From Acidimicrobiia bacterium (GTDB lineage: Bacteria > Actinomycetota > Acidimicrobiia > Spongiisociales > ZC4RG35): a DNA stretch of 64,000 nt. This document shows, piece by piece, positions 29,897 through 43,013 of the stretch. The notes under the pieces were generated by a model that was not told the DNA's origin, made no database searches, and worked only from the letters and a program-made list of their open reading frames with translations. The stretch covers positions 1,920,001-1,984,000 of the forward strand of contig OZ244034.1 of assembly GCA_965215185.1 (NCBI GenBank), read 5' to 3'. Both the position numbers and the translations under genes were made by a program. How positions within the stretch are numbered: the first letter of the stretch is position 1; each line of letters opens with the position of its first letter.

Positions 29897-31633
29897 TCAG
29901 CAGGACTCGATGTATTCCACAAAGCTGAAGGGTGCGCTCATGTTGGCACCGGGGTAGCTGTAACCGCAGACGACATTGGGATCGACGACGGTCTCCGAGA
30001 AGGTCCGCAGCAACGGGATGTGCGGGGCGTTCTCAAAGACGACGTCCCCGAAGTCACGCCACAAGGCGGCCTGTTTAACCGTGTCCAACTCAATGAGGAT
30101 CGCTTCGTACTCGGTGTCCCAGTCGAGCATGCAGACTGGTCGGGCGGAATCCTGGTTGCAGTATCCCGCCGGTTCGAAACCGGTCACGTTTTCTGAGGCG
30201 GTGTCGTCGAATTCGACCATGCGATCGAACTCGCGGGCCTCACGTGCTGCCGAGTACTGCCCACCGTCCATCGACACGAGTTCTACGTCGAACCCGGCAT
30301 CCGCCAGCATGGTGCCGACGGCCTCGCTGAGGTCATTCTTGGCGATGACCTGGATACTGACCGGTCCGCCGAGCCCGTCCAGAATTGCGCGGGCGCCATC
30401 GGGATCGTAGCCGATATGCTCGCCGAAACGGGCTTCCCAGTCGGGGTTCCAGGAGTCGGTCTGCTCCGGCAGCCAGTACCACATGATGGCGGTCTCGGCC
30501 TCGCCTCCGTAGAAGGCGTCGTTCAGCGCCTGGCGGTCGATCGCCTTGTTGGCGGCAATACGGATGTCCTTGTTACACCATGGGCTGTCTGGATACAGGC
30601 GTTCGCCGCTGGTGAACACATCCGCGGACTTCTCTCCGGGGATTGATGGCTCCAGGTAGTAGCAACCCACGAGGGCCAAGCCATAACGACGTCCGGGGAG
30701 AGCCGACTTGATCACCTGCATGCCTTGCGCCTCGGCTTCGTCGCCGAGTTCCTGAGACAGCGAGGTCATTTGAACTTCACCCGCCAGCATTGAAGAGATC
30801 CTGGTGGCCTCCTCACCGATGAAGCGGTATTCGATCTCGTCGAAATCGCCGTTCTGACGCCAGTGGTCATACGGCACCTTCTCGAACACGACGTTCTGAC
30901 CAGGGTTCCGCTCCAGGAATTGGTACGGCCCGGTTCCGGCAAGTGGGGCCTCATCCAGACCTGGGGAGGCAGGCGAGCCTCCTCCTCGGGAGTCCCAGTC
31001 GGCCTTACTCTTGATGACCGCTCCCGCGGCGCCGTAACTGATGCCTTCGAAGAATGCGAAGGAGAGGTTATCGGTGACGTGGAAGATGACGGTGTAGTCG
31101 TCCACGATCTCGAACTCCCCTACAGCGTTGCGCACCGCTTCTGCCACACCGGAGACAGCTCCGGGTGGATCGATTAGGTCGGTGAGGGAAAACACAACGT
31201 CTTCCGCGGTCATCTCACCGAAACCGTTGTGGAACTGGACTCCCTGCCGAAGGCGGAAGGTAAGTTGGTCCCCAGCGTCGTTGAGTCCCCAACTCTCAGC
31301 AAGCATCGGGATCCACGCAGCGGTCAACGGGTCCACGCCGACCAGGTTCTCGTACATCGGTTTGAGCTGGTACTCATCGTTGGGTTGTATGTCGCGGTTG
31401 GGGTTATTCGACTCGCCCTGTTCGGGAGGCGGAACGGCGAATACCAGTCTGGTTGGTTCTGGTTCCGGCGCAGCCGTGGTTGCGGGTGGGGCAGCGGTAG
31501 TGGTGGGGGCGACCGTGGCTGCGGTGGTGGGTGCTTCATCACCTGCGTCGTCGCCGCATGCCGCGGCAACTATTGCAAGGCAAGCCAGCAACGCCACAAG
31601 GGTCCTTAATCGCCAAAAATTGCCTGATTTCAA
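29897..31633 (-). CDS. ABC family-5 substrate-binding lipoprotein
   Basis: Lipobox AAAC, Ala/Thr/Pro linker, LRQGVQFHNG, GTGPY. Confidence 0.9.
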   Translation of the reverse strand: MKSGNFWRLRTLVALLACLAIVAAACGDDAGDEAPTTAATVAPTTTAAPPATTAAPEPEPTRLVFAVPPPEQGESNNPNRDIQPNDEYQLKPMYENLVGVDPLTAAWIPMLAESWGLNDAGDQLTFRLRQGVQFHNGFGEMTAEDVVFSLTDLIDPPGAVSGVAEAVRNAVGEFEIVDDYTVIFHVTDNLSFAFFEGISYGAAGAVIKSKADWDSRGGGSPASPGLDEAPLAGTGPYQFLERNPGQNVVFEKVPYDHWRQNGDFDEIEYRFIGEEATRISSMLAGEVQMTSLSQELGDEAEAQGMQVIKSALPGRRYGLALVGCYYLEPSIPGEKSADVFTSGERLYPDSPWCNKDIRIAANKAIDRQALNDAFYGGEAETAIMWYWLPEQTDSWNPDWEARFGEHIGYDPDGARAILDGLGGPVSIQVIAKNDLSEAVGTMLADAGFDVELVSMDGGQYSAAREAREFDRMVEFDDTASENVTGFEPAGYCNQDSARPVCMLDWDTEYEAILIELDTVKQAALWRDFGDVVFENAPHIPLLRTFSETVVDPNVVCGYSYPGANMSAPFSFVEYIESC

Positions 31634-31657
31634 GATGAACCTCTTTCTGCAATCGGA

Positions 31658-31673
31658 TTTGGTTTAAACCAAA
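31658..31673. promoter_or_regulatory. Perfect palindrome TTTGGTTTAAACCAAA, candidate GntR/FadR-type operator
   Basis: 16-bp palindrome in the divergent promoter region. Confidence 0.6.
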
Positions 31674-31809
31674 CAGTATCAATAGAATCCAGCCGTTTCA
31701 TCATAAACATCAAGTTAAAGTGTGGGGTCGCAACTAAAAGGCATCGCAACTAACATCGATGGGCAGCAGGGCTGGGGAATCAAGTCCTTACACAGAAGAG
31801 AGGTAACCG

Positions 31810-32601
31810 ATGACAAGCCAACCCGAAATCTTCAAGCGATTCGTCGGTAAAAGGGTTCTAGTCACCGGCGCCGGCACCGGATTCGGTAGTGCGATCGCTC
31901 GTAGGGCAGGCCTAGAAGGGGCACGGGTCGCCGTCCATTACTACAGTTCCACGGCCGGCGCAGAACGGACCACCGAACAGATACGCCAGATGGGCTCGGC
32001 GGCATCGATATTCCAGGCTGACATCAGTTCGTGGGACGCGGTGAAAGAGATGGCAGACGCAGTCTTCGATGAGTTCGGTGGGCTGGATGTGTTGGTTAAC
32101 AACGTCGGGGACATTGCCACCGAGCAGATGTCGTGGCGCGACGTGACTCAGGAACTCGTGGATCGGGTGATCGATGTCGACGTTAAGGGAACCCTCTACA
32201 TGATCCACGAATTCGGTTCCAGGATGCTCGAACAGGACGAGGGCGGGGCGATCGTAAATATCGGCTCCACCGTTGTTGTAAGAGGCAGCCCCCGTGCCCC
32301 GCAATACGCCGCCGGCAAGTACGGCGTCATGGCACTGACCAAATCGTACGCGAGAGCATTTGCCCCCAAGGTGAGAGTGAGCGCCTTCGCACCAGGATTC
32401 ATGGCTACGGAGTCCACGGTCTCCCGGGACGACTGGAATACCGGTCGACGGGAGGCAATCACCGCGGCGACGCCAGCAGGACGGGTCCCCACCCCAGAGG
32501 ACATGGCCGGACCTGCCCTGTTCCTCGCCACGCCCGAGGCAAGTCACATGATCGGCTCTTATGTAATTGCCGACGGCGGCCGCAGCACTGTCGGCGCCTG
32601 A
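31810..32601 (+). CDS. Short-chain dehydrogenase/reductase
   Basis: TGAGTGFG, NNVG, YAAGK. Confidence 0.9.
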   Translation: MTSQPEIFKRFVGKRVLVTGAGTGFGSAIARRAGLEGARVAVHYYSSTAGAERTTEQIRQMGSAASIFQADISSWDAVKEMADAVFDEFGGLDVLVNNVGDIATEQMSWRDVTQELVDRVIDVDVKGTLYMIHEFGSRMLEQDEGGAIVNIGSTVVVRGSPRAPQYAAGKYGVMALTKSYARAFAPKVRVSAFAPGFMATESTVSRDDWNTGRREAITAATPAGRVPTPEDMAGPALFLATPEASHMIGSYVIADGGRSTVGA

Positions 32602-32609
32602 CAACTGAT

Positions 32610-34085
32610 GGGACTTATATACTTGGGTTGACAGTGTTGTCATCTCGGGTGATACTGTTCTGCGGCGTGCGGTTGCCCGGTTTTCCCTGGGGAGAGCCTG
32701 GTCTTATGTCCGTATTTTGTATAGCGCGCCTGCATCGGGGAAAGATCCCGCCCGACCCGGGCGTTCTTCCGAACGCTCGGACGCTGATATTGACGGCTGC
32801 GTTGCAGTCCCTGCACATAGTGACGCCACACCCTCCGCATTCGTACTTGCGTTTGCTGAGAGGCATTTTCTGGCGGTGCCCGCACTGCGAACAGTCCGTG
32901 GTAGTGTAGGCAGGGTCCACCTCTACATACCGGATACCAGCCTTCCCAGCTGTGTGTTCCAGTATCGGATCGAGAGATGACAGCCTTTGGTCGTGTAGTT
33001 TTTTGCCCCAACGCCGCGAGCGTGACCACCCCATTAGGTTGGAGTGTTCTATGGCTATACCGTCAAATGTGGTCACCAGGTAGTGGCAGAGACGGAAGTC
33101 GGCCTGGCGGGCCCGCTCGGTCTCTCTTCTCCACGCTCGGGTGAACACCTGCTGCTTTTTCTTCCTGGTGTTGGAATAAGGCAGTCTCCTTCCTGCCTGT
33201 TTCTCTTTCTGTTTGTGCGCTTCTACAGATCTGCTCAGTGCCCGTTGCTTCCTGGTGATGTTCTCGCGGTCAGGAGCCCGAGCCGGGACGTGCGTTCCGT
33301 CCGAGAAGATCAGACGGTCCGCGATGCCCTTGTCTATACCCACCGGGTTGGTGACCGGCCGCTCGGGCAGTTCCCGCTCGGGATGTTTCAACACCACATG
33401 AAGTTCCACCCGGAGAGGCGTTCTCACTACTCGGAGTTCCTTCACAGAAGCGCCCATACCCAAAGCAGCAGCGATGCGGTTGCCCTTGTCGCGGAAACGC
33501 ACCCTCGGCACTCCCTTCGCAGACAACCTCCACCACCTGGCGGACTGGTTCTTCGGCGTGCCCGGCGCCTGAAGCATGGAAGGCGAAGGGTCGGGCATCT
33601 CGATACTGCGCCACCGACGGGAGGGCTTGAAACGAGGAAAGCCCGGGTTCTTTCCTTCCTTACAGCGCTCATAGAAGGATGCGATGGCGCGGTCGAAACG
33701 AACCAGGACACCTCGTCCTACCTTCACGGAGAGACGCTCCCATTCGGGATGATCCGCTCGAACAGCGGTGAACATCATCATACGGTCATACAGAGACAGG
33801 TTCCAATCGGACGGGAACTTCTCCACTTCGGGATTGTGGTGCTCTTTCCACCACAGGTAGGTGCCTCTCCAGGACTCCAAGTTAGCGTTGTACAACTCGG
33901 CGCACATACGAAAGATCTGGTCAAGGCGACGATGACCAGAAGGGGACAACTTAGCGGACACCCGCACCGTCTCAAACCAAGGATTCATGCGCTCACCAGA
34001 ATATATGAGGGGGTGTGACAATACTCGGGCAGACGTGCATGCACAAACCTCAAAACATGCCTGTCAACCCAAATATATAAATCCC
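32610..34085 (-). mobile_element. Non-autonomous TIR-bounded element carrying only tnpB
   Basis: GGGACTTATATACTTGGGTTGACAG (32610-32634) and CTGTCAACCCAAATATATAAATCCC (34061-34085) are 23/25 inverted matches. Confidence 0.8.
32615..33988 (-). CDS. tnpB: RNA-guided endonuclease TnpB
   Basis: LYN, GFPRFK, RuvC-I GIDKG, RuvC-II IAIE, CSQC/CGGC zinc finger, RuvC-III RDCNAAVNI. Confidence 0.93.
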   Translation of the reverse strand: MNPWFETVRVSAKLSPSGHRRLDQIFRMCAELYNANLESWRGTYLWWKEHHNPEVEKFPSDWNLSLYDRMMMFTAVRADHPEWERLSVKVGRGVLVRFDRAIASFYERCKEGKNPGFPRFKPSRRWRSIEMPDPSPSMLQAPGTPKNQSARWWRLSAKGVPRVRFRDKGNRIAAALGMGASVKELRVVRTPLRVELHVVLKHPERELPERPVTNPVGIDKGIADRLIFSDGTHVPARAPDRENITRKQRALSRSVEAHKQKEKQAGRRLPYSNTRKKKQQVFTRAWRRETERARQADFRLCHYLVTTFDGIAIEHSNLMGWSRSRRWGKKLHDQRLSSLDPILEHTAGKAGIRYVEVDPAYTTTDCSQCGHRQKMPLSKRKYECGGCGVTMCRDCNAAVNISVRAFGRTPGSGGIFPRCRRAIQNTDIRPGSPQGKPGNRTPQNSITRDDNTVNPSI

Positions 34086-34949
34086 ATTTCATACACAAAG
34101 GTAGCGGCATCTTTTGAATCAGTGTTTTTGAGGGAAGGGATCATGTTGAAGTGGGAACCGCCCGGGCCGGATGTGCGTTGGTCTGACGTTCTATCCGCAG
34201 AGCAAGCCAGAAGAAACGCCAGCAAGCGGACACTTCGGGTGGCGCTTTTCGCCCTGGAGATGCTCCTGGGGCAAACCCGCCCTCATTGTCATTAAAAAGA
34301 GCCGCTTGGGCTGCAGCAAAACGACCGTGAGTTGTTCTGGGGTAGTTGGGAAGACCGAATGTCGTCGGCGAATGCCTATTCGCACCTACTGATGGACATG
34401 ACGTTCGAGTTGGTGTGCTACGCCACCGCAACTCCCCGCAGGAGGAGGATGAACCTGTTGAGCACTCTCCACAAATATCCGCCGTCCACCAGGTCCGTCT
34501 TGGACCGGCAGTTGAGCACGGTAGACATGGAGTGGTTGCGGAACTGGCGAAGAATCGGCCAATGGGGCCCGGAGAACCCACGGGAGCCAGGCGAGTTCAA
34601 GGACTGTGGTGTGGTGTGGGCCGCGGGCCGCAAATACACCCTGATGTCGGGCACACCCTTTGATCAGGGCACGGCTACCTATGTTCGTCTCGTAACGGAT
34701 GTCTTCCATGACGCCCTCCGCCATGCAGCCGAAACGGACCGCCCTACCTACGGGCCACTGCATGTCCTCATCGGGAAAATCAACGAAGAACTGGCGCAAT
34801 TGTGGGGCGCTACCAAAGATCGACACTGGGTGTATGCGGGCGGAACACCTCCCAAAGAATGGCCGCGTCCTTGGGAAGGTGTCAAGTGGAACCCAGAGAA
34901 CGCTTGTCTATCTTTTTGTGAGGTTACGCCCGTTCTTCGGAGCGGGTAA
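34086..34949 (+). pseudogene. 5'-truncated MNT-HEPN-like fusion paralog with an internal stop
   Basis: ISYTKVAASFESVFLREGIMLKW aligns with VSYIKVPTTIEANTLREGRMLKW of 45938-47014; in-frame TAA at 34293. Confidence 0.8.
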
Positions 34950-34954
34950 AAAGA

Positions 34955-35055
34955 CCTCGGAGGGAGGGAAAGTCACGATGCCGCTGAACGATATGTTCTG
35001 GGGTGCGTACTTCGGCGCTTGCACGGACAAGTACGGCATTAACTGGATGTTCAAC
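34955..35055 (+). pseudogene. PhnB/VOC C-terminal fragment
   Basis: [32 protein letters not shown]. Confidence 0.7.
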
Positions 35056-35216
35056 TACGCAGCGTTTATAGCTACTCGATTCCTTCCAGAGAATCCCCCA
35101 CGTAACCCTCGCACAGAAACGGAGCTACGACCGTGGCAACAGCGTCGAGAAGTCCAACTCGATGATCGTCAGACGGCGAGCATATGTCGCCGGATGACGA
35201 GAACGGCGGTGCGGGC

Positions 35217-35420
35217 TCAACGCCACAGCCACGTATTTGGCGAGGTGCTGTCCGGTGAGGGTCGAACGGGCGGTGACAAGGTCGGTGGGTGTGCCCTCGA
35301 ACACGACCCGGCCTCCATCATGGCTGGCTCATCGAGTACGTAGATCCCCCCTTCTCCGCCATGTGGATTGCCAGCTTCAGCCGCTGTCGTTCGCCACCGG
35401 AGAGCATCGTAAGCGGTTGG
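35217..35420 (-). pseudogene. UvrA2/DrrC-like ABC ATPase C-terminal remnant
   Basis: LSGGERQRLKLA..YVLDEP and [20 protein letters not shown], with an internal deletion. Confidence 0.75.
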
Positions 35421-35726
35421 CCGACGGTGAGGGTGGCCGGGGCAAAGCTGTTGTGCAGTCACACCACGCCGGGAACCGAGCGTTATGTCGGGAGGTCGAC
35501 GATCTGAGGTTTCTCGACCCAAAAGACCCACCCCAACGGTAACCCGGCGAACTTGGGACTTCGGGTCGCTCACTGGCACGCTTTGCTTCACGCCGCGCTG
35601 CGTATGGGGCTCAGGTGGATTCCCGCTTGGAACCCGCGCTGTCGAAGAGCGATTGGCGGGCGCAGGTTGCTAGGATGGGGGCAATGATAGTTCGCAGATC
35701 CATAGTGGCGCGCCTCGCCGGGAAGG

Positions 35727-37697
35727 TTGGCTAGGGCGGGGAAACACCACAGCACGCAACCCTCGGGGTGGAAGGATTTGCGGAACGCTGTTGAATGGCC
35801 TGGTACCGTGCGAGTGTTCCACGCTGTTGATCAGAGAGGTGTCTGCGGCCAATCGGGTAGCGACTCGGAAACATGGTACGTGCTGGTCGTGGTTGACAGC
35901 ATCAGCGCCGCCGACAAACAACTAGGGTTGTCGGACCATGAGGACCATGTGTGGGGAACAGACGGATGGCTCTCGCGGGCCGCTTCCGAACGAACCGGCC
36001 TGGACATCCGAGTGAGGGTGGTCGACTGGGACCGGTGGCGGTCCCTGCGCCGGGTGGCTGGGACTTTCGAGCACGAATTCTTCTCGCACGGCCGGTGGTT
36101 GGTCAAGCCGTCCCGGAGGCGGCATCGCATAGCCGCCGAGGGGAAGGGGCAGGCGGAGGCAACCTGTCGGTATTGCGTCGATTTAGGCCACGAGCGGTGG
36201 CCGTCCACCTTGGAACGCTCCCGCGATTTCGCCGCGGTCAGAGTCCTCGAATCGGGCGGAGAAATGGTAGAAATGGCGTTGCAGGACATGAACGCCTCCG
36301 CCCATGCCCGCAGGGGTTTCGACCAGGAACACCTAAAAAGCATCCATGGACTACTATTCGACGCGTTGCGCTGTTTCCTCGCCGGGGGTCTCGTTTTGTG
36401 TTCCGTTCCATACCGCCCGACCAGCGAACCCACCATCGTGGAACTGTTCGATTTGTTGCCCGTCGGGTTCGACCGTGGGAGCATCACCAGGGAACACGTT
36501 GAGTTGTTTCACTCTTGGAAACGCATCCGCTGTAAGCCCACCAGGGAAACAATCCAGCAGCTGGGGTGCGTCACCGCCGAGATGATGGGGTTGATCGCCC
36601 AACAGATCAGGAAAAACAAAAACCGAGGACAGGGGATGTTCGATCGGACATTGGGATACTTTTCGGGGGAGAGGGAGCGGTTGCGGCGCACATTAGCGTT
36701 GCCCCGATGGTCCGACCCGCAGTGGTTCTCCCTCCGAACGGACCTGGGGACCGTGCGACGAGCCGCCGAGCAGCTACTCCCCGCCGGGACTATCGAATAC
36801 ACCCCCGAAGGAAAGTCTGCGCCCACGTTGGCTGTCGTAGGCGGCGACACACCCCGGAATCGTGGACGCTCCGAGGGAGAGCGCTTCATGGACATCATCG
36901 AGGATGCCATTGGACTGGTAATTCCCGTGCGAATAACAGACGCCCAAACGTGGGCGAACAACGCGACCCATCCGCTGGCGTGGGAATACCACGCCGCCAA
37001 GACAGGAACATGGATCACCTCACCGACTGTCCGCGTCCAGCCGCTCCCCTACGAACAGGTGTGCGTAGAAAGAACCGTCCGAGCGTTGAAGAAGGTGAGT
37101 TCGCAGGTGAGTTGGGCCTCCTATGGCCACACTCCACGGCCTGGGGAGACCGACAGCGTGATACGCAACAAACGGGTAGAATATTGGGAGCAGCTTGTCG
37201 AACGGCTCCGCCATCACCAAAAGGTCATAGCCCTTCTACGGGTGGAGATAGATAGAACGCGGGCGGAGATGAACGAAACGCCGGGCTACCAGCCGACCAA
37301 ACCCCCGAAAGTTGACGCGTATTCCCCTCCCCCTGGTGGGGAAGGCACCGAGCCGCCCTTGGTGGCCAACGTCAGGAAAACCACTACCGGGGCGCTTCTC
37401 TCCTGCGAATCCCTCGTTAGAGAAATCGCTGAATACGCTCAGCAAACAGGCACGACCACAGAACGGTTCGGCCGGCCGCTGGAAGCGATCCGAGAGTCCA
37501 TCCAATGCATCGCCGATAGCCTCGGCGATCTCCGATGGGTATACCCCGACGGAACCCCACCCCGCGGGTGGGACCCGTATCATCTGAACCGCCAAGAGGT
37601 CCGGTCCGAACACTCGGACATACCCCAATCCCGCCATTACCAAAATGCGGACATGGCCCAGTCCGAGGGTCAGCCCACCCCGAGACCCTTGACCTGA
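35727..37697 (+). CDS. Tandem degenerate MNT-HEPN-like protein
   Basis: VVDWDRW..GTFEHE..GRW linker appears twice in diverged form; ends WVYPDGTPPRGW; GS..DxD motif lost. Confidence 0.65.
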   Translation: MARAGKHHSTQPSGWKDLRNAVEWPGTVRVFHAVDQRGVCGQSGSDSETWYVLVVVDSISAADKQLGLSDHEDHVWGTDGWLSRAASERTGLDIRVRVVDWDRWRSLRRVAGTFEHEFFSHGRWLVKPSRRRHRIAAEGKGQAEATCRYCVDLGHERWPSTLERSRDFAAVRVLESGGEMVEMALQDMNASAHARRGFDQEHLKSIHGLLFDALRCFLAGGLVLCSVPYRPTSEPTIVELFDLLPVGFDRGSITREHVELFHSWKRIRCKPTRETIQQLGCVTAEMMGLIAQQIRKNKNRGQGMFDRTLGYFSGERERLRRTLALPRWSDPQWFSLRTDLGTVRRAAEQLLPAGTIEYTPEGKSAPTLAVVGGDTPRNRGRSEGERFMDIIEDAIGLVIPVRITDAQTWANNATHPLAWEYHAAKTGTWITSPTVRVQPLPYEQVCVERTVRALKKVSSQVSWASYGHTPRPGETDSVIRNKRVEYWEQLVERLRHHQKVIALLRVEIDRTRAEMNETPGYQPTKPPKVDAYSPPPGGEGTEPPLVANVRKTTTGALLSCESLVREIAEYAQQTGTTTERFGRPLEAIRESIQCIADSLGDLRWVYPDGTPPRGWDPYHLNRQEVRSEHSDIPQSRHYQNADMAQSEGQPTPRPLT

Positions 37698-38084
37698 GCG
37701 CCGCCCCGACCAACACACCCGTTAATTGCCGTCCACGCCCTATGTGTCAGATTCGGGAACCTTACCTGCGCTTTGGCAGCTTTCTTGAGAGGGAATCCAC
37801 ATTTCGAATTAGGCGGAGGTCATCGCCCTTTGAGAGGATACAGAAGAAGGCTTCAACAATGTCCAAAGCCGGCCTGGTATGCCCGCGACCTGGGGAGCTG
37901 TTTCCAGTCACGATCCTTCAGGCTCGGCGGTGCGTTGGCGATCGGCGCTGGGGGTCATGGTGGGAGCTCCCACAGGCCGCCAGGCTAGATACCACCAGGT
38001 TCGGCCTGTTCGCGTTTGTGCTCGACCCACGGCGAAACAGCGAGAGGCCCGAGGACCAGAATCCCGTCGACCACCACTAATAAA

Positions 38085-38200
38085 GGGGGTTTATATCTCT
38101 AAGTTGACAGGGTGTCTAGGCGATACTGTTCTGCGAACCACGATTGTAAGAATACTCCAAATACACAAATCGCTCCGTCCACTTAGATATATAAACCCCC
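38085..38200 (-). mobile_element. 116-bp MITE related to the tnpB element
   Basis: TIRs GGGGGTTTATATCTCTAAG / CTTAGATATATAAACCCCC; shares GTTGACAG and GATACTGTTCTGCG with the tnpB 3' end. Confidence 0.8.
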
Positions 38201-38645
38201 ATGATGACATGGGGGTGTTTACCTGGTAGCCCTTAGAAGGTCGTGAGGCACATGGAACACGAACCCGATAATTGCAACTTGCGGAGCAGTTCGCACAATT
38301 GGGTGGAACTCAGCAACCCTGACCGTGAGGGTGTGGCTTGTTTCAACAACACCGGGCAGCGGGTGGGGGCTGTGGAAAAACGCAGCGACTCCGTGTTCGC
38401 GATCACGGTGCGGTTTGTTTGGCGAGCGTGGGATTTTCGGGGCACCCGAAGTGCTCGCCGAGGCTATGCGTTGGGTAGAGGAAATGGAACACGCTGTCCC
38501 AGACGAGTTCACCGAGTTCTGGAGAGAAGCGTTTTACAGATATGCCGAGATTCGTGGCGACATGCTAGACCCTGATGACGGCATGACTGGGTTGCTGATC
38601 TCAATGCTTAGAAGGGGAGACGCGAACGGCGTGGTCGCTGCCGAC

Positions 38646-38667
38646 GGGACTTAGGTATATAAGTCCC
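38646..38667. repeat. Palindromic solo TIR-like footprint
   Basis: GGGACTTAGGTATATAAGTCCC; its last 13 nt are identical to the tnpB element end. Confidence 0.6.
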
Positions 38668-38753
38668 AAAGGAATAGTCAACCAGTAGGCCGGTCGCTTT
38701 CCAGCGTCGAATAGGCTCGGGGATGGATACGGCGCAGATAATGCTCAGATAGG

Positions 38754-38993
38754 ATGAACCAGAGGGAACAGGTGGAGGCACGTGTCCGGAAAGCGTGGCA
38801 GACGTACCAGAGAGTGCATAGTGAAGCGACGAACAATATCCGGGAAGCCTCTCGAGCAGCGACCGACGAAATCGTAGCCGCCCACGAGGCAGGAATCAGT
38901 GTCGAGCGTCTCGCCGAAGTGCTCCAACGACCCGTTAGCGTAATCAGTCACCGGATCCGCCACGCCGAAGACAACTTAACGAGTGGAGGTTAG
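38754..38993 (+). CDS. Small HTH-like protein
   Basis: IVAAHEAGISVERLAEVLQRPVSVI. Confidence 0.55.
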   Translation: MNQREQVEARVRKAWQTYQRVHSEATNNIREASRAATDEIVAAHEAGISVERLAEVLQRPVSVISHRIRHAEDNLTSGG

Positions 38994-38999
38994 GGCAAG

Positions 39000-39233
39000 G
39001 TGTTGGATTGGAATACAGTCCCGTCGTTGGAAGCAACAGAGGGAAAGGTCAGCGGCGCGTGGGTGTTCAAAGGAACCCGGGTGCCAGTACGCGCTCTCTT
39101 CGAGAATGTGGGCGACGATTACATCGCCGAGTTCTGCCGTCATTTCCCTGGCGTGACCGAGCATCAAGTCAGGACAGTGCTTGACTGCATATCGCAGCAT
39201 CTCATAGAGGACATCGTCATCGAGGGACATTGA
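39000..39233 (+). CDS. DUF433 antitoxin-like protein
   Basis: GKVSGAWVFKGTRVPV..LFEN..FPGVT. Confidence 0.8.
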   Translation: MLDWNTVPSLEATEGKVSGAWVFKGTRVPVRALFENVGDDYIAEFCRHFPGVTEHQVRTVLDCISQHLIEDIVIEGH

Positions 39234-39291
39234 ACAAAAGGCTGGCCCGCTGCGCCAACGGTCCTATATCCAGTTGAATATACTGGGGGCG

Positions 39292-39530
39292 ATGAATCCT
39301 GTTCGTTTGATACGTGCCGTGGCGGGCATGACCCAGCGAGAACTGGCCGACGCTGCTGAAACTTCTCAGCCCACAGTGGCGGCATACGAATCTGGTGCGA
39401 AAAGTCCCACTTGGCGCACCGTTGAGCGGATAGCGGATAGCGGATAGCGGATAGCGGATTCGGTCGGCCTCGCGGGTTATCCCACAATGGGAAGGGCGTT
39501 GACTCGCGAACAGGAGAGAAGTGACTACCG
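39292..39530 (+). pseudogene. XRE-HTH gene truncated by a heptamer repeat expansion
   Basis: GMTQRELADAAETSQPTVAAYESG..PTW; (AGCGGAT)5 introduces TAG at 39445. Confidence 0.75.
39425..39459. repeat. Tandem repeat (AGCGGAT)x5
   Basis: Read directly. Confidence 0.95.
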
Positions 39531-39585
39531 GACAGCCGAGAGTTACCTAGACATAGAATCGGGTTCCTTCCCCTCGTAATAGCGT

Positions 39586-40030
39586 TTGCATATCGGTCTC
39601 GCCTCCGCCTACGAACATGAGGCGTGGAGGTACTGCAGCCCCGAATACGATCCTCTGAAAGGAACGGGTGCCTACCGGAAAGGGGGACGATTCAATCCCC
39701 CTGGCATATTCACGCTTTATCTCTGCTCAACCAAAGCATGTGCTGACCCGAATACAGAAAGGAAGTGGCCAAGCGTGAGCGGGAGGCCAAAGAAGCCGGA
39801 TATCCGAAACTCATGCCTGTCCAGAATCTATACAAATACCGAGCAAGGTTGTATTCCGTGTTGGATTTGACCTCCCACCAAACACTGGAAGCGATCGGTG
39901 TATCTTGCCGTGATCTGACCACCAGCAATTGGAGGATATGCCAGGACATAGGCCAAGAGGCCTATGGAGAAAGATTTCAAGCGGTTCTCTCATGGTCCGC
40001 AACCGGGCAGGACAAAGTAATAGCGGTACC
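39586..40030 (+). pseudogene. RES-domain toxin, frameshifted and truncated
   Basis: GAYRKGGRFNPPG..LYL in one frame; VLDLT..CQDIG..SAT in another. Confidence 0.8.
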
Positions 40031-40130
40031 GGGCGAAACTAAAGAAGCGGGTTCTCCGTGTGGTAGCCTTATCAGATGGTGAGGCGATACACAACGCTTT
40101 CATAGACAGGCGTTTCAGGAAGGAAACCCA

Positions 40131-40979
40131 ATCAGACTCAGTTATCACCCAGATACTGACAGCCTCTACATAGAATTCCATCCTGGGCCGAGCGCCCACA
40201 CCGTGGAGATCGTTGATGGGGTCAATGTGGATTTTGACGCAACGGGCGGCATCGTCGGATTTGACATTGACCATGCGTCCAGGCATTTGGATGTCTCTAC
40301 ATTGGAAGCCGAGGCGCCGGGCATCTTGCAACGGGTTAGCGATAGGCGCCATCCGGAAGCGGTACACGTTGAAACAGGCAAAGATTTCCTCAGGGTGTTC
40401 TTGGCGGACGGCAGGGGCATTGCTGTGCCTTTGTCTTGGTATCCCCGGTTGTGCCACGGCACGGCAGAAGAAGCGAAAAAGTGGGAGTTGCGCGGCGAAG
40501 GTGAAAGCATTTTTTGGCCCGCCTTGGACGAACGAATGGGTGTTTCTGACCTCTTGAAGGAAACACCTTCTGGTTCCCACCCTTCGTCGCTGGGGTTCCA
40601 AAACGAAACGCATGTTTCGGATGAGAGTTACGCGCAAGCGGTACACGTTGAAACAGGCAAAGATTTCCTCAGGGTGTTTTTGACGGACGGCAGGGTGATT
40701 GCTGTGCCTTTGTCTTGGTATCCCCGGTTGTGCCACGGCACGGCAGAAGAAGCGAAACAGTGGACCATTCCCGGCCAAGGGAGAGGCATATCTTGGCCCG
40801 GCTTAGACGAAGACATCAGTGTTTGCGGTCTTTTGGATGGGTTTCCTTCTGGGGAGAGTGCCCGGTCGTATGGTCGGTGGTTGCAGGCACGGAAACAAAA
40901 CCGTGGTTTGATAGGTGCAGAAATAGAGGACCACGAATCGTCGGCGGAGTTCCGCAAGGGAACGTTCCACAACGATTAG
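40131..40979 (+). CDS. DUF2283 + two DUF2442 domain fusion (start codon apparently ATC)
   Basis: YHPDTDSLYI..VDFDATGGIVGFDI, then two DGRxIAVPLSWYPRL..WPxLDE units. Confidence 0.75.
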   Translation: MRLSYHPDTDSLYIEFHPGPSAHTVEIVDGVNVDFDATGGIVGFDIDHASRHLDVSTLEAEAPGILQRVSDRRHPEAVHVETGKDFLRVFLADGRGIAVPLSWYPRLCHGTAEEAKKWELRGEGESIFWPALDERMGVSDLLKETPSGSHPSSLGFQNETHVSDESYAQAVHVETGKDFLRVFLTDGRVIAVPLSWYPRLCHGTAEEAKQWTIPGQGRGISWPGLDEDISVCGLLDGFPSGESARSYGRWLQARKQNRGLIGAEIEDHESSAEFRKGTFHND

Positions 40980-41923
40980 TAGCGGCCCGGCGTTAACCCG
41001 ATTGGGTGGATCACCCGTCCTTGGCCGCGGGGAACTTTCCGATGGGTGGCCACCAACGGGCCTGGCGGAACGATTTGCCGTCGATATTCCACCATCCGGC
41101 CTCGGGTACGGGTTTGGCAAGACAACACCCAGGCGGCGCTTTCGCTGTCACACACCCGGCATATTATTTGAGAAGTGGCCTTCAAAATACACATGATTGC
41201 GCTCTTAGCTACTGGCACTCCCCGCCGGTCCCACCCAACCGGTGACAAGCAGTGTTTACCTGCCTCGCGAGACCGGCAACCCCGGCTATGTCCGAAGATA
41301 AGCTCGTGAACCGGGAAATCGGGCGGGCAGCTTTAGTGGTGGTGGACGTGCAAAACGACTTCGCTGACCCGCAAGGGTCCCTGTATGTCCAAGGAGCCGA
41401 GGGTGTGGTTGTAGAAGTGAACCGGTTAGTGGAAGATGCCATAGCCGCTGGCAACCCCGTGTTTTACACTCAGGACTGGCATCCGATAAACACTCCGCAC
41501 TTCGCCAAGTACGGGGGGATATGGCCCGTGCATTGCGTAGCCGGTTCTACCGGGGCAGAGTTCCACCCCGATTTGAAAGTCGAAGGAGTGTCCGTGAAAA
41601 AGGGCGTAGCGGGAGAAGACGGCTATTCGGGTTTCACCATGCGGGACCTGACGGATGGCAAAGACCACCCCACCGTTTTGGATTCCCTACTGCAACAAGA
41701 ACACGTCACCAAAGTAGTGGTAGTGGGACTAGCGTTGGATTATTGCGTCAAAGAAACAGCGTTGGACGCGGTGCGGTTGGGATATGACACGGAGGTGCTG
41801 CTCGGCGCCACCGCCGCGGTGAATCTATCCCCCCACGATGGGGTAGTGGGTCAGTTTGCTGGGTAAAGCCGCAGGTCAGAGAGTCAAACTGACCCACTAC
41901 CAAGCTGTGGAAGGAACTCCCCA

Positions 41924-43013
41924 TTGAGACGGCTTAGAGTCGTACCGCTTATTCTGGTTCTGGGAATGATGGCAATCCCAGTAACCGCGCGGGCGGAGAC
42001 ATGCCCGAGTGGCAGTGAAGCGGTTGGATCAGGCGACGACCTCCGATGCCACATCAACGGAGGATTGTTCACACCCCAGGCGGCCCGCCTCGCCCACTCG
42101 CGACGATTAGGGAGCCTCGGCGACGATTAGGGAGGGCCAGGGGACTACTTTCACTGCGCCGAACCCCATGAATCGTCAGAGCCTCCTTTGCGGAGAGAGC
42201 AGGGTAATTCGCACGATTACCACCGTCATTATTGATGGCATTGGATACACGACTACCACATCTCGCACTCAGAAAGCCGGAATCCGATCTCTACCCACGA
42301 TGGATGGTGTTCAGGATCGCACCTCGGATGCGCCAGTCGACTGCCTAGGTACGACCTACAGTGTATGTAAAGGCCCTTACACCATAGAACTACTGACGCG
42401 CGACTCTCGCGTCACGGCGACCGGGAGTCGGGTCACGGTAAACACGGACGCTACGGATAGCTTAGATGATTCGGGCAGGCTAGAGATCCTCTACATCTTG
42501 AAGGGGACGAGGACCGTCACCACCGCGGCGAAGGACGGCTTTCCTGCCTCGGAGAGGATCGATGAATGCGATCTGTACCAGAGGGCGGGTGTGCAGATAG
42601 GGCAACAGCGTAGGTCAGGCATGACCGAAGTGGTGGCACTGCATGCGCCCTCCGCGGCGTGGCTGGGGGACACCACTACCACCACTTGGACCTGCACTCA
42701 GGCGATCATAGATGAGGGTGTGCAGTGCGATCTGAATGCGGTGGTATCCACAACCAGAGCGAATGAATTCCCCACTCCCAGCGGATGCGTGGTCATCGTG
42801 ACCGTGGCTAAGAACGGGAGGGGTCACGGGTCTACAGCGTGTCTCCCTCAGGCACAAGCGCAGTCCCACGGAACCATGATCGGGTTGAACATCAACGATC
42901 TCCCAACTTGCCCCAAGAGCACCAATACAGAAGTGATGAACGGTATAGATCCCACGCCCTCAACGGAGGATGGCGAGGAAGAACCACGGAAGAGGTGCGT
43001 GGCTCGCAACTGA
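41924..43013 (+). pseudogene. Secreted Cys/Thr-rich protein frameshifted by a 19-bp imperfect duplication
   Basis: Signal peptide ending ARA; deleting 42101-42119 joins both ORFs in frame. Confidence 0.7.

Follow-up and report, generated by a model that had tools for sequence, protein, structure and literature searches.

A tnpB cassette with IS1595-type ends in a Spongiisociales genome: probable mobilisation in trans and a predicted guide RNA that runs through the right inverted repeat

How does a gene for the RNA-guided nuclease TnpB come to lie alone between the terminal inverted repeats (TIRs) of a cut-and-paste transposon, and what might it do there? The question is raised by a 1476-bp element at positions 32610-34085 of the window, a stretch of 64,000 nucleotides from an Acidimicrobiia bacterium of the order Spongiisociales (assembly GCA_965215185.1, contig OZ244034.1, positions 1,920,001 to 1,984,000), for which an earlier reading made from the letters of the DNA only (hereafter the sequence-only reading) had proposed a TnpB captured by a DDE transposon family and mobilised in trans. 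Our analysis supports this proposal through shared ends, 8-bp target duplications and the absence of a transposase from the cassettes: the element is likely a non-autonomous member of the IS1595 lineage, its cargo an intact tnpB together with its omegaRNA, moved in trans and using a guide taken from the flanking DNA. It belongs to a family of cassettes with IS1595-style 25-nt ends, 8-bp duplications, occupied as well as empty orthologous sites, and no transposase on board. A cassette carries nothing besides TnpB and its guide RNA, and must therefore rely on a transposase from another source.

The 25-nt inverted ends of the element pair at 23/25 positions (25/27 when the AT flanking both sides of this copy is included), and in 100 shuffles of the window there were no matches to the 25-mer end at <=3 mismatches. 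Between the repeats tnpB is the sole long open reading frame (ORF) with a family match, and its TAA stop (32615-32617) sits within the right inverted repeat, i.e., the one on the tnpB 3' side; repeats, gene content and stop codon had been described in the same way by the sequence-only reading, with which the repeat comparison, the shuffles, the ORF scan and the coordinates agree. The boundary 32609|32610 is fixed independently, since two sister genomes match the 3' end of the adjoining dehydrogenase gene through ...tgacaactgat and then continue into other DNA; a contig of metatranscriptome run X1, from a related strain, also parts from the window sequence at 32609. The boundary 34085|34086 is based on the inverted repeat and the family alignment, and stands where it had been placed before, but not on the ground given then, an MNT-HEPN-like gene cut at 34086: the 69 codons that are open at this point have no Pfam match at E<=0.01. 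The octamers outside the two ends, in tnpB orientation TATGAAAT and ATCAGTTG, differ from each other, so that the window copy lacks an 8-bp duplication (0/8), as had been noted previously. The AT on both sides was considered as a 2-bp duplication or as the crossover site of a serine recombinase, and both were ruled out, because other copies are without the AT and have 8-bp duplications.

The protein encoded between the repeats is predicted to be catalytically intact, with the canonical bacterial D-E-D arrangement. It passes the NCBIfam model guided_TnpB (NF040570) with 157 bits at a cut-off of 100 and matches Cas12f1-like_TNB of Pfam (E=5.8e-18), the match to OrfB_IS605 remaining below the cut-off, as do the weak matches to the NCBIfam models of IS200 and IS607 TnpB. 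In a HMMER alignment to ISDra2 TnpB (8bf8), D219, E314 and D394 fall on that protein's D, E and D, which we take to be D191, E278 and D361; the three acidic RuvC residues and the zinc finger, which the sequence-only reading had found to be retained, agree with this alignment.

The same ends recur throughout the genome of 3.12 Mb to which the window belongs (the host genome). At <=3 mismatches the 25-mer end has 14 matches there (its reversed control has none), the 13-mer core of the end yields further ones, and the matches pair around seven tnpB-only elements of 1252-1476 bp with a DNA identity of 65-73% to the window copy; the host genome also holds end-bearing fragments, a 115-bp miniature copy and larger elements. 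At E<=1e-20 the TnpB protein was detected in 7/17 genomes of the genus, the host included, with up to 20 matches per genome, and in none of 44 genomes of other genera of the family and order. A scan of a genome collection revealed cassettes in three further Acidimicrobiia metagenome-assembled genomes (MAGs), two of them Candidatus Spongiisociaceae, a TnpB profile at E<=1e-40 (five candidates scored per genome) matched 0/300 other Acidimicrobiia genomes, and a metagenome scan gave eight loci, several of which duplicate known copies. The inverted ends are kept in 32/32 cassettes in which both ends could be placed, with TnpBs that have diverged to 44-73% identity. The sequence-only reading had raised the possibility that homologous tnpB genes lack the TIRs or have IS605-type ends inside them; the repeats are kept by all placeable cassettes, no IS605-type ends occur within these, and the predicted RNA scaffold itself uses the right repeat.

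The flanks of these cassettes carry the marks of their insertion. Among the 28 cassettes of the genus with both ends placed, an 8-bp direct repeat is perfect (8/8) in 17, 7/8 in four and lower in seven; the three cassettes of the other Acidimicrobiia MAGs have 8/8 in every case, and one extra metagenome cassette has 7/8. The target duplication thus reaches 7/8 or better in 25/32 cassettes from host, sister genomes, other lineages and metagenomes. For the copy at 1556143-1557546 the orthologous site is empty in the genus genomes G011, G004, G002 and G015, and holds there a single octamer-like TAAATCGA(A/G), one A more than the duplicated TAATCGAA; the right end of the window copy likewise has matching empty sites, in G002 and G011. 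The 8-bp duplications and the empty sites (the latter for two copies), for which the sequence-only reading had recommended a search, therefore both exist.

Candidate donors of the transposase were found in sister genomes. Eight of the 17 genomes of the genus have matches to PF12762, and seven complete transposase-bearing elements of 2.5-3.5 kb could be delimited in sister genomes, with ends that start GGGAATTAYATAC... or GGGGATTATAAGG... and with perfect 8-bp duplications in 6/7. Three scanned transposases (318-329 aa) pass NF033547 with 178-187 bits (cut-off 75), and two that were scanned with Pfam contain DDE_Tnp_IS1595 (PF12762) and Zn_ribbon_IS1595 (PF12760); in the two passengers scanned with Pfam, a DNA methyltransferase is joined to a nuclease domain, HNH in L070 and Mrr-like in L072. 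At a further locus, L071, transposase and passenger share one open frame of 809 aa. Cassette ends are identical to the nearest autonomous end at 15-24/26 bases (the window copy at 20-21/26, L070 type), and separate subtypes of cassette ends match separate subtypes of autonomous ends. The ends also fit the GGnnaTTAT pattern by which the sequence-only reading had tentatively pointed to the ISNwi1 group of IS1595 elements. The sequence-only reading had made its case depend on a DDE transposase that shares the ends of the element, and the sister IS1595-family transposons have such ends together with an 8-bp duplication. None of the 38 TnpB loci has an IS1595 transposase closer than 4 kb, and none of the cassettes contains one; the host genome has only a 96-aa DDE fragment (2082791-2082958), which leaves the window copy intact but stranded. 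Because there is no IS1595 transposase in the element and no full one in the genome, we file the element as a transposase-less derivative and not as an insertion sequence (IS). Its inverted repeats, the duplications of its family and the lack of a Y1 transposase in the host genome (0 matches to PF01797) set it apart from IS200/IS605 elements (IS1341 group), and the duplications likewise from IS607 elements, the single Resolvase match of the host genome (2415447) being distant from every TIR site of the 13-mer core search.

The right end of the cassettes appears to have a second role. It contains a region common to all of them, in which the near-invariant GACAYCGCAGAACAGTATC lies 36-47 nt from the element end (the motif of the window copy is listed in Table 1), and five IS1595 elements with a transposase, examined for comparison, have neither region nor motif. 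When the last 215 nt of 21 copies were aligned, 34 consensus pairs emerged, of which 14 show compensatory changes. The CATCGC-type 5' part of the motif pairs with an upstream GCGATG, and the segment 3' of the motif forms a terminal stem with bases -8 to -17 of the inverted repeat. The register of this stem yields 145/200 canonical pairs compared with 41-107 in shifted registers; one pair of this stem is C-G in 10 copies and A-U in six, switching along with the repeat subtype. Since the right repeat both pairs and covaries with the segment that follows the motif, it would belong to the scaffold, AAGUCCC remaining as the 3' end, and since the scaffold would then run through the right inverted repeat, the guide is most likely the flank beyond the element end. 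In the window copy this predicted guide would be ATCAGTTGTCAGGCGCCGAC, which spans the stop codon (32599-32601) of the dehydrogenase gene, and sister genomes carry the same sequence as an empty site preceded by G. Of the two guide positions that the sequence-only reading had left open, the flank is thus favoured and the TIR itself disfavoured, since the scaffold uses the right repeat. A pseudoknot between GUCCC and GGGAC was rejected as an additional element of the fold: RNAalifold predicts it only with the GGGAC within the RuvC-III codons, and neither partner varies.

The target sites are, in addition, asymmetric. When insertions are oriented by tnpB and the base at position -9 from the left end, directly 5' of the left duplication, is scored, G is found in 20/21 cassettes of the genus, 3/3 of other lineages and 1/1 from metagenomes (24/25 in total); it is also present in 5/7 cassettes without duplication (the window copy included), in 4/4 further left flanks and in the sister-genome empty site of the window copy. 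As controls, G occurs in 3/16 end-orientations of eight non-tnpB elements with the same kind of ends, and at the mirror position, past the right duplication, no more than 5/24 have C (Fisher p about 6e-7 and 1e-7, computed on 23/24). If the guide starts at the first flank base, this G occupies the position of the last base of a target-adjacent motif (TAM), and the occupied right junction has C, the last repeat base, at the equivalent position. To judge from these flanks, the chances are about even that the G bias represents a TAM footprint of homing. Reading the G and the octamer as an extended -10 promoter was ruled out, there being no T before the G and no -10-like hexamer.

The following course of events may be envisaged. 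IS1595 transposases of the elements in sister genomes would move the cassettes in trans by cut-and-paste; the omegaRNA would be transcribed through the right inverted repeat, which would form its last stem and leave AAGUCCC, and the guide would be supplied by flanking DNA, starting with the duplicated octamer or just after it. TnpB might then cut the unoccupied allele, repair from the occupied copy would restore or drive the insertion, and such homing would leave a bias for G directly 5' of the left duplication. That TnpB acts as a drive for the DDE cassette, insertions into AT-rich octamers persisting only where a TAM (G, perhaps KNG) lies directly 5', is a possibility to which we give somewhat less than an even chance; if true, it would explain the G at 24/25 independent insertions and also why cassettes outnumber and outlast the IS1595 transposase in most host genomes.

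A number of observations weigh against this picture. The window copy itself has a duplication of 0/8, and because it has none, its mode of insertion is judged from its relatives. A full-length open tnpB remains in only 2/7 copies of the host genome, and cassette ends always have GGGAC where autonomous ends have GGGAA or GGGGA. Among the seven cassette-bearing genomes of the genus, a full-length IS1595 transposase is present only in G007: G002 has a transposase piece of 163 aa, G000 and G015 have fragments, and G003, G004 and G011 have none, yet G003 and G011 hold the highest numbers of cassette copies. Because most cassette-bearing genomes are without a full transposase, most cassettes are probably stranded now. 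With regard to the RNA, the pairing of the terminal GUCCC with the upstream GGGAC is uncorroborated by covariation, since neither side varies, a scan of 31500-35500 against Rfam (scored by E-value) gave no match, and the sole RNA run comes from a relative without the element. In this run, X1 (0.09 of sampled words), contigs span the dehydrogenase gene and end, or part from the window sequence, at 32609, none extending over the element; because X1 derives from a relative that lacks the insertion, it says nothing on expression of the element, and the 30-nt loose end of an X1 contig was not found in the host genome at <=3 mismatches. Runs X2, X4 and X5 contain the element and may be the source sample, so they add no independent support. 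Finally, on the tnpB strand the octamer is rich in A, and the next base is A in 11/21, so that something else may underlie the asymmetry, or the guide may begin only beyond the octamer. A TAM of one base would also be unusually short.

Another cause of the asymmetry would be at hand if the architecture were the same and TnpB mere cargo, with the G and the A-rich octamer arising from an asymmetric target preference of transposase and ends or from tolerated niches. The strand-asymmetric octamer with its following A (11/21), by which more than one position is biased, would fit this explanation, as would the inner parts of the left and right ends, which differ and could make the transpososome asymmetric, the many decayed copies, and the fact that only eight control elements are available. 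We nevertheless consider it rather unlikely, since the G is specific to one position (24/25, its neighbours lying close to background), has no counterpart on the opposite side (C in 5/24), is not favoured in tnpB-less elements with the same kind of ends (3/16) and stands exactly at the place of a TAM for a flank-derived guide, the C that is always found at the right-junction equivalent being suited to allow discrimination between self and non-self.

Alternatively, a constant guide could lie inside the right repeat, the scaffold ending at ...CAGAACAGUAUC or after the inner stem, and TnpB would target the ends of its own family, for excision or for attack on competitors. This option, raised already by the sequence-only reading, would account for an invariant motif 36-47 nt from the end that is followed by a more variable stretch, and for the retention of just the right-end tail by a 115-bp miniature (38086-38200) and a 3.5-kb element, but the stretch after the motif pairs and covaries with the repeat and so behaves as scaffold, the preceding bases vary (GTCAAC, GTCTAC, GCGTAC, GGCAAC) and offer no constant TAM, both ends of each copy would be self-targets, and the G rule would be left unexplained; we regard it as highly improbable. 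That an ordinary IS200/IS605- or IS607-type tnpB element landed once in a miniature inverted-repeat transposable element (MITE), or that the ends are mere look-alikes, can practically be dismissed: TnpB does normally reside on those families and weak sub-cut-off NCBIfam matches to the IS200 and IS607 TnpB models exist, but the same ends accompany 32/32 placeable cassettes despite TnpB divergence to 44-73% identity, there are 8-bp duplications and clean empty sites, internal ends have no room (72 nt separate the left repeat from the ATG, and the RNA scaffold enters the right repeat), and the genome has no Y1 transposase and a single resolvase match away from the TIR sites.

With an IS1595-type cassette moved in trans as the preferred explanation, the missing duplication of the window copy is best read as the sign of a recombinant or rearranged junction, in which the duplication would have been lost on the tnpB 5' side. 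Comparison with sister genomes identifies the dehydrogenase-side flank as ancestral. The DNA that follows this flank in G002 is 88% identical to 2744266-2745251 of the host's own genome, ~790 kb away, and the ~860 bp immediately to the right of 34086 are without an equivalent in the genus; the left flank of the window copy still consists of G and an AT-rich octamer. An adjacent deletion of the neighbour's 5' half, as suggested by the sequence-only reading, is not what these comparisons indicate, the DNA next to the ancestral flank now being ~790 kb off. Searches for the reciprocal products of a recombination between two copies and for the ancestral junction string found neither. At the metagenome loci L174 and L178, on different contigs, the right-end octamer of one cassette (TAACGATG) is the left-end octamer of the other, and this common octamer suggests that homologous recombination between copies reshuffles their flanks, as we propose for the window copy.

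The DNA right of 34086 contains ORFs of 102 and 205 aa without a match in Pfam, and none of the ORFs right of 34086 has one in NCBIfam. An ORF of 656 aa (35727-37697), 1.6 kb beyond 34086, also has no Pfam or NCBIfam match; its ESM Atlas look-alikes are weak and nucleotidyltransferase/HEPN-like (0.91), a lead only. Window positions 34948-35432 comprise a short repeat, stretches of which, ~100 nt long, recur with 70-91% identity at several sites in most genus genomes and elsewhere in the host genome. A search of 30000-42000 for tRNA genes found none.

Further sequences with cassette-type ends were encountered. The miniature element at 38086-38200 (115 bp) has the same inverted ends and no duplication, and retains the last ~50 nt of the cassette right end, CGCAGAACAGTATC included. 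A solo end at 38643-38667 (GGGACTTATATACCTAAGTCCC, minus strand), for which no partner end was found, forms a hairpin, its outer 8 bases being repeated inverted 6 bases further in; to the right of it, 38754-39233 encode a 79-aa ORF with weak helix-turn-helix matches and a 77-aa DUF433 protein (E=1.3e-7). A 3.5-kb element at G000:C1:952908-956420 combines cassette-type ends, a duplication (ACAGAAAA) and the right-end RNA tail of the TnpB cassettes with ORFs of 640, 170 and 253 aa in place of tnpB, the 640-aa ORF having 78% DNA identity to the 656-aa ORF of the window. At G000:C1:472602-472958 a 118-aa ORF, flanked by two solo ends (472283 and 473181), fuses a C-terminal TnpB remnant (CxxC..HADRNA) to a nucleotidyltransferase-like N-terminus (GSRATG..SDVDLLVV). 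An 8.3-kb element at G000:C1:2074718-2083010 has related 25-nt inverted ends (GGGMCYTATATACGATCCTACACAC), a perfect 8-bp duplication (TTATTAAA), ORFs of 1354, 485, 365 and 411 aa, and a 96-aa remnant of an IS1595 transposase just inside one end; its four-gene set may resemble an SMC-like defence system.

Table 1. Coordinates of the tnpB element, its predicted parts and the transposase-bearing relatives (window positions, unless a locus is named)
Feature	Position	Strand	Basis or remark
tnpB coding sequence, 457 aa plus stop, ATG at 33988	32615..33988	-	Family matches; start backed by N-termini of sister copies
RuvC residue D219	33332-33334	-	HMMER alignment to ISDra2 TnpB (8bf8)
RuvC residue E314	33047-33049	-	HMMER alignment to ISDra2 TnpB (8bf8)
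RuvC residue D394	32807-32809	-	HMMER alignment to ISDra2 TnpB (8bf8)
Zinc-finger Cys 366/369/384/387, pairs CSQC and CGGC	in tnpB	-	
Right-end terminal inverted repeat (tnpB 3' side)	32610..32634	-	Repeat comparison; boundary confirmed by sister-genome empty sites and run contig
Left-end terminal inverted repeat (tnpB 5' side)	34061..34085	-	23/25 against right end
Near-invariant right-end motif of all TnpB cassettes, CGCAGAACAGTATC	32651..32664	-	Right-end comparison
Predicted omegaRNA scaffold, ~190 nt, over the tnpB 3' end through the right repeat to the last base of the element	32610..32800	-	Extent inferred
Predicted guide-encoding flank, ATCAGTTGTCAGGCGCCGAC in tnpB orientation	32590..32609	-	Inferred from family architecture
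Left flank, G plus TATGAAAT in tnpB orientation	34086..34094	-	Family target pattern of G plus AT-rich octamer; no matching copy at the other end
Transposase-bearing IS1595 elements of sister genomes	L070 11541-14286; L072 10315-13222; L073 11123-14046		

Siguier, Gagnevin and Chandler reportedly described in 2009 IS1595 elements with passenger genes ('transporter IS') as well as transposase-less derivatives. The cassettes resemble the transporter IS in their GG..TTAT-type inverted ends, 8-bp duplications, passenger genes and MITE-like derivatives, but differ from them in having an RNA-guided nuclease plus its guide RNA as passenger, and in a right end that would double as transposase site and scaffold. 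With the IS1341-type solo-tnpB elements and palindrome-associated transposable elements (PATEs) of IS200/IS605 they have in common a tnpB-only organisation of ~1.4 kb, the presence of multiple copies, and miniatures that keep the right-end RNA; those elements, however, have neither inverted terminal repeats nor duplications, use a Y1 TnpA and insert 3' of a TAM, none of which applies to the cassettes.

TnpBs in DDE transposons and solo TnpBs mobilised in trans have been known since 2023, which limits the surprise: six DDE-associated branches (DDE-1 to DDE-6), all with inverted terminal repeats, and solo TnpBs whose ends are like those of transposase-bearing systems and which were inferred to be mobilised in trans, are described in the available part of that work (Altae-Tran et al. 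2023, PNAS, PMC10691335). The window cassette, which we liken to DDE-1 to DDE-6 by architecture alone, agrees with the systems as presented there in that TnpB resides in an inverted-repeat transposon with the tnpB 3' end within 250 bp of the transposon end. The accessible text of that paper names only IS630, its supporting information lists IS1595 among the comparison profiles, and the six branches may include IS1595. In contrast to the systems in those sections, no cassette here carries a transposase in cis, and a variable 8-bp duplication separates TAM and guide from the specificity of the transposase. A review of 2026 (PMC13565253) names, in its accessible portion, ISL2, IS630 and IS1031, and calls such TnpB associations rare in prokaryotes; in the literature we found no title or abstract opening that links TnpB with IS1595, and no earlier description of a G footprint of this kind or of one end serving both transposase and guide RNA.

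The parallel with Fanzors, already drawn by the sequence-only reading, is apt, even if the prokaryotic phenomenon was published in 2023: in Fanzors, TIR and target duplication lie within the guide-RNA scaffold, according to the available part of a study that also reports an IS607 TnpB with a GGG TAM (Yoon et al. 2023, NAR, PMC10711439). Like Fanzor1 and Fanzor2* as portrayed there, the cassette would be a TnpB-type nuclease on a cut-and-paste transposon, with a repeat folded into the scaffold and the guide beyond the end. The Fanzors of that account are eukaryotic or viral and absorb short fixed duplications (such as TA) into the scaffold, whereas the cassettes are bacterial, have variable duplications of 8 bp and a D-E-D nuclease.

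TnpB is proposed to cut the scarless donor site anew, whereupon repair reinstates the element; this logic was worked out for IS605 and IS607, where the target motif of the transposase is the TAM. Where TnpB is paired with a DDE transposase of the IS1595 family, target motif and TAM come apart, since the duplication, of 8 bp, is variable. The cassette family, whose insertions can be dated and number in the dozens, and which comes with empty sites, matching autonomous partners and a candidate TAM footprint, therefore offers a compact natural system. It bears on whether and how RNA-guided homing helps cut-and-paste transposons, and on how a single DNA end can be at once the site of a transposase and part of a guide-RNA scaffold, a shared-end problem that eukaryotic Fanzors have solved independently. 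If TnpB does act as a drive for these cassettes, the G next to their insertions would be a population-genomic footprint of RNA-guided homing in a bacterial transposon with inverted repeats and target duplications.

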